Source: a phage | Direction: 5' to 3' (one strand) | Length of the DNA stretch: 64,000 nt | Assembly (NCBI GenBank): GCA_016390365.1 | Contig: GCA_016390365.1_3043.1 | Shown: positions 8,968-9,747 of the stretch, piece by piece | Layout of the letters: each line of letters opens with the position of its first letter | Numbering within the stretch: position 1 is the first letter of the stretch | The notes under the pieces: model-generated | Databases searched by the model: none | What the model saw: the letters and a program-made list of their open reading frames with translations, nothing else | What the model was told of the DNA's origin: nothing | Translations under genes and position numbers: made by a program

Positions 8968-9747
8968 TTATACTCTTGGACCATATATTGCTCCAACATT
9001 TTGCCATGTTGGAGCGGACCCTATGACAGCATAACCAGCAGCGCCGCCACCATAACGAGAGCCTGAGTTTCCGCCACAAGCTCCACCAGCAGATCCCACA
9101 TTTCCTCCGTTTCCACCATAAATCGCATTTCCCGGTTTAGAACCAATGCCCGCCCCAGTCAAAGTGCCCGCGGTAGAAGCTGATCCTCCAGAATACCCGC
9201 CAGCCGCCCCAAATGGACGTCCGCCACCGCCACCAACAACATATCTCGTTATACCGGCATCCCAGTAGCCACCGCCACCGCCGCCGCCGCCGCCGCCTGC
9301 AATAGCTCCGCCATTATTAATTCTTAGTCTCCCGCCAATATCGTTTTGAATACAATGACCCCCAGCTGAGCCAGGACTATTGCTACCACCATTACCTCCA
9401 CGACCATACATCGTTACGCCATGTATATTTAACTGAACATATTCATTTGGTGTATCTCCGTACATGAAGAATAAAGGAACATCTTTAGAATATGATACTA
9501 AATCACCTGTAATATTAAACACTATAGGTGCACTACCTGCCTCAAAACATCTATCTCGGAACCATTGACCATTGAAGTTATGGTCTGCTCCAAGCGTGTG
9601 AATAATTTCTCGTGAGCGACCTGCAAATTGACTCATCCAGCAAGGAACACCCAATCTTAATTGACCAGCCGCTTGACTCATCCAGCGCTGTCCTGTTTCA
9701 TTTGCGGCTGAACTTCCAATCCAACCAGGAACACCAACTACTGCCAT
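8968..9747 (-). CDS. 38: long tail fiber tip adhesin gp38 (T2-type, glycine-rich)
   Basis: 259-aa ORF with conserved N-terminus ([13 protein letters not shown]...) and multiple poly-Gly motifs; downstream of gene 37. Confidence 0.85.
9268..9297 (-). repeat. 38: poly-glycine codon tract (GGN repeats) in gene 38
   Basis: Plus-strand GCCACCGCCACCGCCGCCGCCGCCGCCGCC encoding GGGGGGGGGG on the minus strand. Confidence 0.9.

Follow-up and report, generated by a model that had tools for sequence, protein, structure and literature searches.

A T2-type gp38 adhesin of the M1/Mi subtype with a one-codon expansion in its central glycine tract in a Tequatrovirus genome

Gene 38 and its surroundings

The DNA examined here, which we call the window, is a phage sequence of 64,000 nucleotides (contig GCA_016390365.1_3043.1). 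It belongs to a Tequatrovirus and over 25 kb shares about 96% identity with G10400, SHFML-11 and RB3. In the open reading frame listing, gene 38 begins with ATG and encodes a protein of 259 residues. The gene order is 37-38-t-asiA, as in relatives, with gene 37 upstream of gene 38, the holin gene t (8281..8937) downstream, and all three of these genes on the minus strand. A 5-kb query spanning genes 37, 38 and t is 97.8% identical in DNA to HEMP5 and G4498. The features that we assign in this region are collected in Table 1.

Table 1. Features of the gene 37-38 region, in coordinates of the window
Feature	Position	Strand	Basis or remark
Gene 37, distal long-tail-fibre subunit, 982 aa, gp38-carrying trimer	9784..12732	-	Pfam gp37_trimer, Peptidase_S74
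gp37 DVYIR, aa 865-869, predicted new C-terminal strand and gp38 docking surface after cleavage	10126..10140	-	Reading of fPS (PMC7917993)
gp37 putative intramolecular chaperone, aa 870-982, 113 aa	9787..10125	-	Peptidase_S74; predicted autocatalytic removal at R869/S870
Gene 38, T2-type (M1/Mi subtype) long-tail-fibre adhesin	8968..9747	-	Stop codon 8968-8970; Pfam and PDB matches; identity to M1, Mi and UAB_60
gp38 N-terminal attachment domain, aa 1-42, with Trp "prongs" W9/W22/W37	9622..9747	-	Gp38_N at 1-42; model helices
gp38 beta-helix domain, aa ~47-150	9298..9609	-	Model strands, pLDDT 93-98; conservation map
First glycine motifs in the beta-helix domain, YGRGGNGG 114-121 and AGG 128-130	within 9298..9609	-	
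Short T6-like loop A / HVS1, about aa 121-127	within 9298..9609	-	PP01 loop definitions
Ten-Gly tract, aa 151-160, (GGC)6 GGT GGC GGT GGC	9268..9297	-	Counterpart of S16 PGII helix 3
Loop B / HVS2, aa 161-171 (11 residues), M1-type distal receptor-contact loop	9235..9267	-	Homology, model
M1/Mi-type specificity cassette, HVS2-HVS4 with intervening glycine motifs	9048..9281	-	Gene nt ~467-700; sliding identity
Final glycine motif and conserved C-terminal strands, aa 233-259, completing the beta-helix	8971..9051	-	Conservation map, model

A preliminary description of this locus had reported a 259-residue gp38 with ten consecutive glycine codons at 9268..9297, and this is exact according to the open reading frame listing, a reading of the sequence and a script. 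Codons 151-160 (Gly151-Gly160) read GGC GGC GGC GGC GGC GGC GGT GGC GGT GGC, and TRF reports a period-3 array with 10.0 copies over this interval. Further glycine runs are found at G172-176 and G233-235. Overall, glycine makes up 37% of residues 116-259, as opposed to 12% of residues 1-115.

The base composition follows this division. The glycine-rich part of the gene (gene nt 343-720, ~9028..9405) has 57% G+C, compared with 36% for the whole window. GGC accounts for 20 of the 55 glycine codons in the C-terminal half of gene 38, whereas only 7 of 100 in gene 37 (9784-12732) are GGC; it is the commonest glycine codon in the glycine-rich half of gene 38 (9052-9405) and is rare in gene 37. This preference for GGC brings the local G+C to nearly 60%, against 36% for the genome. 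We conclude that the ten-Gly tract encodes part of a conserved protein motif and is not a chance repeat.

Two other elements lie between the genes. The 36-nt gap from the gene 37 stop to the gene 38 Shine-Dalgarno sequence (GGAG) holds a GC-rich hairpin, AAGGGGG-AAAUG-CCCCCUU (9761-9779, minus strand), with a predicted RNA fold energy of -17.3 kcal/mol, a marginal gain over shuffled sequences (z = -2.0). A late-promoter-like TATAAAT is situated between the Shine-Dalgarno sequence and the ATG.

The adhesin fold and the tip of gp37

Both Pfam adhesin domains are found in gp38 above their curated thresholds: the body domain GP38 (PF05268) at 1e-69 and 235 bits, and the N-terminal domain Gp38_N (PF21721) at 4e-20 and 71.9 bits, the cut-off being 25 in each case. 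The protein also matches the only two solved gp38 structures in the PDB, those of PP01 (9V85, 1.8e-80) and S16 (6F45_D, 4e-50). An AlphaFold2 model built from 93 homologues has a mean pLDDT of 91 and a pTM of 0.82. When this model was compared with the PDB by Foldseek, the same two structures were returned (9V85 with E 1e-25 and a target-normalised TM of 0.89; 6F45_D with E 4e-23 and a query-normalised TM of 0.80), and beyond them no other fold had an E value below 1.

The predicted structure contains the beta-helix and the polyglycine-II (PGII) sandwich, as well as a three-helix attachment domain (helices 10-18, 23-29 and 38-41) that carries three tryptophans. All 93 homologues have W9, and at least 90% of them have W22. 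A conservation map of 114 sequences places conserved glycine blocks at residues 115-121, 151-160, 172-180, 211-222 and 233-238, with variable stretches between them, and the model ends in strands at 241-243, 247-250 and 253-255. We met no evidence that contradicts the family assignment.

T4 also encodes a gp38 in the slot between genes 37 and t, but that protein is a 183-aa assembly chaperone which is released after assembly, leaving T4 gp37 itself to bind the receptor. If the gp38 of the window acted in this way, as an assembly chaperone only, its own gp37 would be the receptor-binding protein. Apart from the shared gene name and position nothing speaks for this, and we give it practically no credence: a BLASTP comparison with the 183-aa T4 gp38 returns E = 1.7, that is, no similarity; T4 gp37 has Collar and Phage_fiber domains and lacks S74, while the gp37 of the window is the reverse, with S74 in place of a Collar/needle tip; and the fold matches adhesins that were solved at the fibre tip. 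We therefore reject membership in the T4-type chaperones. The preliminary description was right to prefer a T2-type adhesin. Its two further statements, that gp38 stays attached to the gp37 tip and that the loops between the glycine motifs determine specificity, are established for close homologues (PMC6851490, PMC12892980, PMC3157838), and by analogy should hold for this protein too.

The same description had taken the helical end of gp37 for a removable intramolecular chaperone. We found that gp37, which terminates in ...EEIKELKTPLFTKIARKISKYFKF, matches Pfam Peptidase_S74 over residues 870-928 (E 5e-10), and that it reads DVYIR|SDSRLKI, with exactly 113 residues after the predicted cut. The S16 gp37 trimer sheds its last 113 residues at DLNVS^SD, and the aligned site in fPS is DVYIR^SD (PMC7917993). 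An S74 domain that begins at residue 870, behind a DVYIR|SD motif and with 113 residues to follow, as in S16 and fPS, indicates that the earlier reading is correct, and such a chaperone is an already known feature. The segment aligns to the S16 gp37 chain 6F45_A. Outside of it, a search of gp37 against the PDB gave a single weak match, again to S16 gp37 (E 0.004), in agreement with the report that the pre-chaperone part of DVYIR-type gp37 is unlike that of S16 (PMC7917993). Gene 38 thus sits directly downstream of a gene whose product bears a putative self-cleaving chaperone end.

Mosaic structure and predicted receptor

The nearest DNA record to the full gene 38 is that of phage M1 (X05676), at 96.5% identity, and the gene is 94.9% identical to that of Salmonella phage UAB_60 and 94.5% to that of Salmonella phage Manna over 89% of its length. 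At the protein level, identity is 99% to Mi, 98% to both M1 and UAB_60, and 91% to Manna. The exact 259-aa protein is present at NCBI as MBJ0221052.1, entered under Escherichia coli as a "receptor-recognizing protein" and encoded on a contig of 165,981 bp; this record is a phage genome inside a bacterial assembly. The window thus seems to derive from the full genome of a T4-like phage that was assembled together with bacterial DNA and given the bacterial label. On the whole, then, this gp38 is an ordinary, already catalogued and well-understood adhesin, whose exact sequence has already been deposited.

A sliding DNA comparison shows where the gene is divided. Both G4498 and M1 are 100% identical to the window across the final 210 nt of gene 37, across nt 1-460 of gene 38, including the DNA of the beta-helix domain, and again from nt 700 onwards. 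Over gene nt ~467-700, identity to G4498, which has a T6-type gp38, drops to 42-62%, while M1, UAB_60, Manna and two Logan metagenomic contigs are mostly 70-100% identical. The left junction of this cassette is located in or just after the glycine tract, which fits the proposal that glycine motifs are recombination hot spots (PMC12032242). In the laboratory, too, gp38 swaps exchanged the gene only "from HVS2 onwards" (bioRxiv 10.64898/2026.04.02.716166). The M1-type cassette is also found behind N-terminal halves that are only ~50% identical (P0036, P0039, P0041). The confinement of the divergence to the cassette, together with the occurrence of the cassette behind unrelated N-terminal halves, leads us to conclude that HVS2-4 has been exchanged as a unit.

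We next consider the class to which the cassette belongs. It is 95% identical to that of M1 and 98% to that of Mi, in contrast to 40-59% for other classes, and against the OmpA binders FL08/AV119 and FL12/FL18 identity is only 46-56%. The window adhesin is therefore assigned to the M1/Mi class, which is not represented in the "type 1" and "type 2" OmpA-binding groups that were described recently. It is also rare, being found in 11 of the ~250 distinct sequences sampled.

Comparison with known systems places these differences in context. M1 (UniProt P08234, X05676) and Mi (G8E057) share with the window the N-terminal domain, the T6-like HVS1 and the HVS2-4 cassette, and M1 in addition has an identical gp37 C-terminus; the differences are a helix 3 of 9 rather than 10 glycines, a few substitutions, and insertions that the window lacks (RYRY in M1; RS and RYA in Mi). 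UAB_60 and Manna, which were isolated on Salmonella, carry a cassette of the M1 type but with 9 glycines, and Manna differs further in having another N-terminal attachment variant and another gp37 end. No receptor is reported for these two phages, and the sole paper on UAB_60 gives no receptor data. The T6-type gp38 proteins of G4498, CM8 and RB14, which are Tsx binders, are identical to the window in DNA at nt 1-460 and from nt 700 onwards, and have the same gp37. Their HVS2-4, however, is replaced, and this replacement predicts a receptor switch from Tsx to OmpA. PP01 (9V85) and S16 (6F45, a gp37-gp38 tip complex) have the same attachment domain, beta-helix and PGII sandwich, and the beta-helix part of PP01 is nearly identical to that of the window. 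Unlike what we predict for the window, both bind OmpC; they do so through different loops, the sequences of loops B-E being unrelated, and their helix 3 has 8 glycines, as opposed to the ten-Gly tract found here.

M1 reportedly uses OmpA. In the study by Trojet et al. 2011 (PMC3157838), Mi gp38 is described as combining a T6-like HVS1 with novel HVS2-4, and Mi itself as depending strongly on OmpA and more weakly on LPS for adsorption, and as growing on both E. coli and Yersinia. Because the gp38 of the window is 98-99% identical to those of OmpA-dependent Mi and M1, and has HVS2-4 of the M1/Mi type, OmpA is its most likely receptor, with LPS contributing as well; this is a prediction from sequence. 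A single HVS substitution can switch porin specificity, as in RB68 Q206L (bioRxiv 10.64898/2026.04.02.716166). Since the extra glycine of the window adjoins loop B, which is essential in PP01, the specificity could differ from that of Mi and M1.

Related modules occur outside of virulent phages. A prophage in the complete chromosome of E. coli TO6 (NZ_LS992166.1, 2934266-2938625; L011 5421-9780), with portal, capsid and tail-tube genes, encodes a "tail fiber domain-containing protein" and, after it, a gp38 named as a "receptor-recognizing protein". Over its first 477 nt, this gp38 gene is 93% identical to gene 38 of the window, and the counterpart in the ETEC4085 chromosome is 88% identical. 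In addition, two large gp38 clusters (P0108 and P0105; ~52% identity) are found on 100-400 kb contigs of E. coli, Shigella and Salmonella. Altogether, these copies and clusters indicate that the module formed by the gp37 tip and gp38 is common to virulent T-even phages and temperate prophages.

Length of the glycine tract and working of the adhesin

In S16, residues 151-GGGGGGGG-158 form PGII helix 3, which lies at the centre of the sandwich and whose hydrogen-bond network is saturated (PMC6851490). The ten-Gly tract corresponds to this helix, and is structural core, neither a linker nor a spacer. DSSP on the model places G159-G160 in the first strand of the loop-B beta-hairpin (159-163 / 167-172), so that helix 3 keeps eight glycines (151-158), the number found in S16 and PP01. 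Loop B itself, a variable segment across the gp38 family, has the lowest pLDDT (73) in the model. Judging from the model, the extra glycine most likely makes loop B one residue longer. In PP01, adsorption requires loop B (PMC12892980). From "AIA" to "GGGGGRP" the gp38 of the window has 21 residues, as do the PP01 and T6 types, and the natural range is 15-24.

We then surveyed tract length in 248 distinct near-full-length homologues. Most have 9 glycines (141), followed by 8 (58), 7 (23) and 6 (22); lengths of 5 (two sequences), 4 (one) and 10 (one, the window itself) are rare. Each loop-B class has a fixed tract length of its own, and all ten carriers of an M1-type cassette other than the window have 9 glycines. 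The synonymous GGC/GGT pattern, on the other hand, differs in nearly every genome compared, at equal length. We also read ~150 members of 11 clusters formed at 90% identity, and only 4 indel or frameshift variants came to light at the tract: an allele lacking two glycines (P0165/P0167), a frameshift (phage HP3, P0133) and the one-codon gain of the window. The two-codon deletion is present in two independent read sets, and its sequence, (GGTGGC)3GGA, is consistent with the loss of one hexamer unit.

These observations bear on the suggestion in the preliminary description that the tract is prone to slippage. At the DNA level this is plausible, given the private GGC gain and the rare two-codon-deletion and frameshift alleles. 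Standing length variation is strikingly low, though, so that the suggestion is only weakly supported. A fixed length within each loop class, in the face of a varying GGC/GGT pattern, argues for structural selection on length, not hypermutability, and the length is otherwise conserved because the tract is core PGII helix 3 and not a spacer. We conclude that tract length is under strong purifying selection, though slippage-type events do occur. The sole unusual point of gene 38 is accordingly the private one-codon (+GGC) expansion in a length-conserved glycine helix.

How the tenth glycine arose admits of several explanations. First, it could be a recombination scar, left by a misaligned exchange within the GGN repeat when an M1-type HVS2-4 was joined to a G4498/T6-type backbone. 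The 100% identity to G4498 over nt 1-460 and the onset of divergence at ~nt 467, that is, at or after the tract, would be expected in this case, and both the proposed recombinogenic nature of glycine motifs and the engineered exchanges from HVS2 onwards are in line with it. However, M1 has the same backbone and the same junction yet 9 glycines, so a junction of this kind can form without the gain of a codon, and the parental GGC/GGT pattern is not reconstructable from the available relatives. We regard this origin as doubtful.

Second, the tenth glycine could have been introduced by faulty assembly or sequencing of a GC-rich trinucleotide repeat, in which case the true gene has 9. A length seen in one of 248 homologues, and in a class whose ten other carriers all have 9, invites this suspicion. 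Moreover, the 10-Gly length rests on one assembly, since MBJ0221052.1 is most likely the same contig, and the GenBank record of phage HP3 is frameshifted exactly at the tract, which suggests that the tract attracts errors. Against this, the change is a clean in-frame gain of 3 nt inside a perfect (GGC)n run, it yields a helix-3 and loop-B span of the same 21 residues as in the PP01 and T6 types, and the 10-Gly form is modelled confidently by AlphaFold; the occurrence of the two-codon deletion in two independent read sets likewise indicates that real length alleles exist. An artefact thus seems unlikely to us.

Searches for a second copy of the allele were limited by the databases. A scan of IMG/VR, which is sparse for the gp38 family, for "NGGAIA" followed, after 6-12 codons, by the M1-type loop B gave no match, nor did a scan for AIA-G10-Y, where the control AIA-G9-Y found 4 contigs only. 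In a contig index, no contig encoded the exact gp38 protein of the window, and hence no independent contig was found for the 10-Gly allele.

Two records in the family deserve mention here. The gp38 of phage HP3 (YP_010278715.1) is cut to 187 aa by its frameshift at the tract, and P0033 is a 303-aa fusion of a gp37 chaperone end with gp38. The two records appear to be errors of sequencing or annotation caused by the GC-rich repeat region.

Third, the GGN tract could be a true contingency locus, at which frequent replication slippage alters the length of helix 3 and loop B in frame within phage populations and so diversifies host range. Several features could be taken to favor this. None of the M1-type relatives compared has a perfect run of more than 3 units, as against (GGC)6 in the window (one IMG/VR contig with another loop-B type also has (GGC)6, within 9 codons). 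Private in-frame insertions of the M1 class cluster in the helix-3/loop-B segment, with +G in the window, +RYRY in M1 and +RS in Mi. The two-codon deletion has a (GGTGGC)3 pattern consistent with hexamer loss, and GGC/GGT patterns turn over between genomes at equal length. But the yield of only 4 variants from ~150 members, and the fixed tract length of each HVS class, are difficult to reconcile with frequent slippage. In addition, the tract forms the central PGII helix, whose hydrogen bonds are saturated, so that a change in its length should in most cases do harm, and T6 adhesin function was reported to be lost on deletion of any single GRM or HVS (PMC3157838). A contingency locus is consequently quite improbable. 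A more specific form of the idea, in which the (GGC)6 tract is phase-variable and high-frequency gain and loss of glycine at the junction of helix 3 and loop B retunes the recognition of OmpA or LPS variants, is in our view very improbable indeed.

The insertions in the M1 class can also be described in their own right. Just downstream of the glycine tract, M1 (X05676) reads (AGATAT)3, as against a single AGATAT in the window and in all other relatives, and this adds RYRY to loop B. The RS and RYA insertions of Mi gp38 are seen at the protein level. Small in-frame insertions seem to be a recurrent way in which M1-class adhesins are altered, and in M1 the DNA identifies a tandem duplication.

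Taken as a whole, our reading is that the window encodes a Tequatrovirus T2-type adhesin that docks on a self-cleaving gp37, most likely recognizes OmpA and has a private GGC codon, and we put its probability at roughly 0.92. It builds on the sequence family, the fold, the mosaic structure, the tract statistics and the cleavage motif, all observed here, and would have the adhesin work as follows. After gp37 trimerises, its 113-aa C-terminal chaperone would cut itself off between R869 and S870. Monomeric gp38, which we expect to be present in the virion, would then plug its three-helix N-terminal domain (W9, W22 and W37) onto the exposed gp37 tip; a docking role for these tryptophans has been described in S16 (PMC6851490). 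The remainder of gp38 would form the beta-helix, from which the glycine-rich motifs project and fold into the PGII sandwich, presenting the hypervariable loops at the distal end for receptor binding. With an HVS2-4 cassette of the rare M1/Mi type, the receptor would be OmpA, with a contribution from LPS. The ten-Gly tract would supply the central PGII helix 3 and the base of loop B, and the private in-frame GGC would most likely make this loop one residue longer.

For the phage itself, the host receptor becomes predictable, namely OmpA with some LPS dependence, and this has little import beyond annotation. The general point from the survey is that the length of the helix-3 tract is fixed within a loop class despite turnover of the synonymous pattern. 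If the tract were phase-variable after all, the 10-Gly allele would represent a host-range variant of this M1-type adhesin that had been selected in nature.
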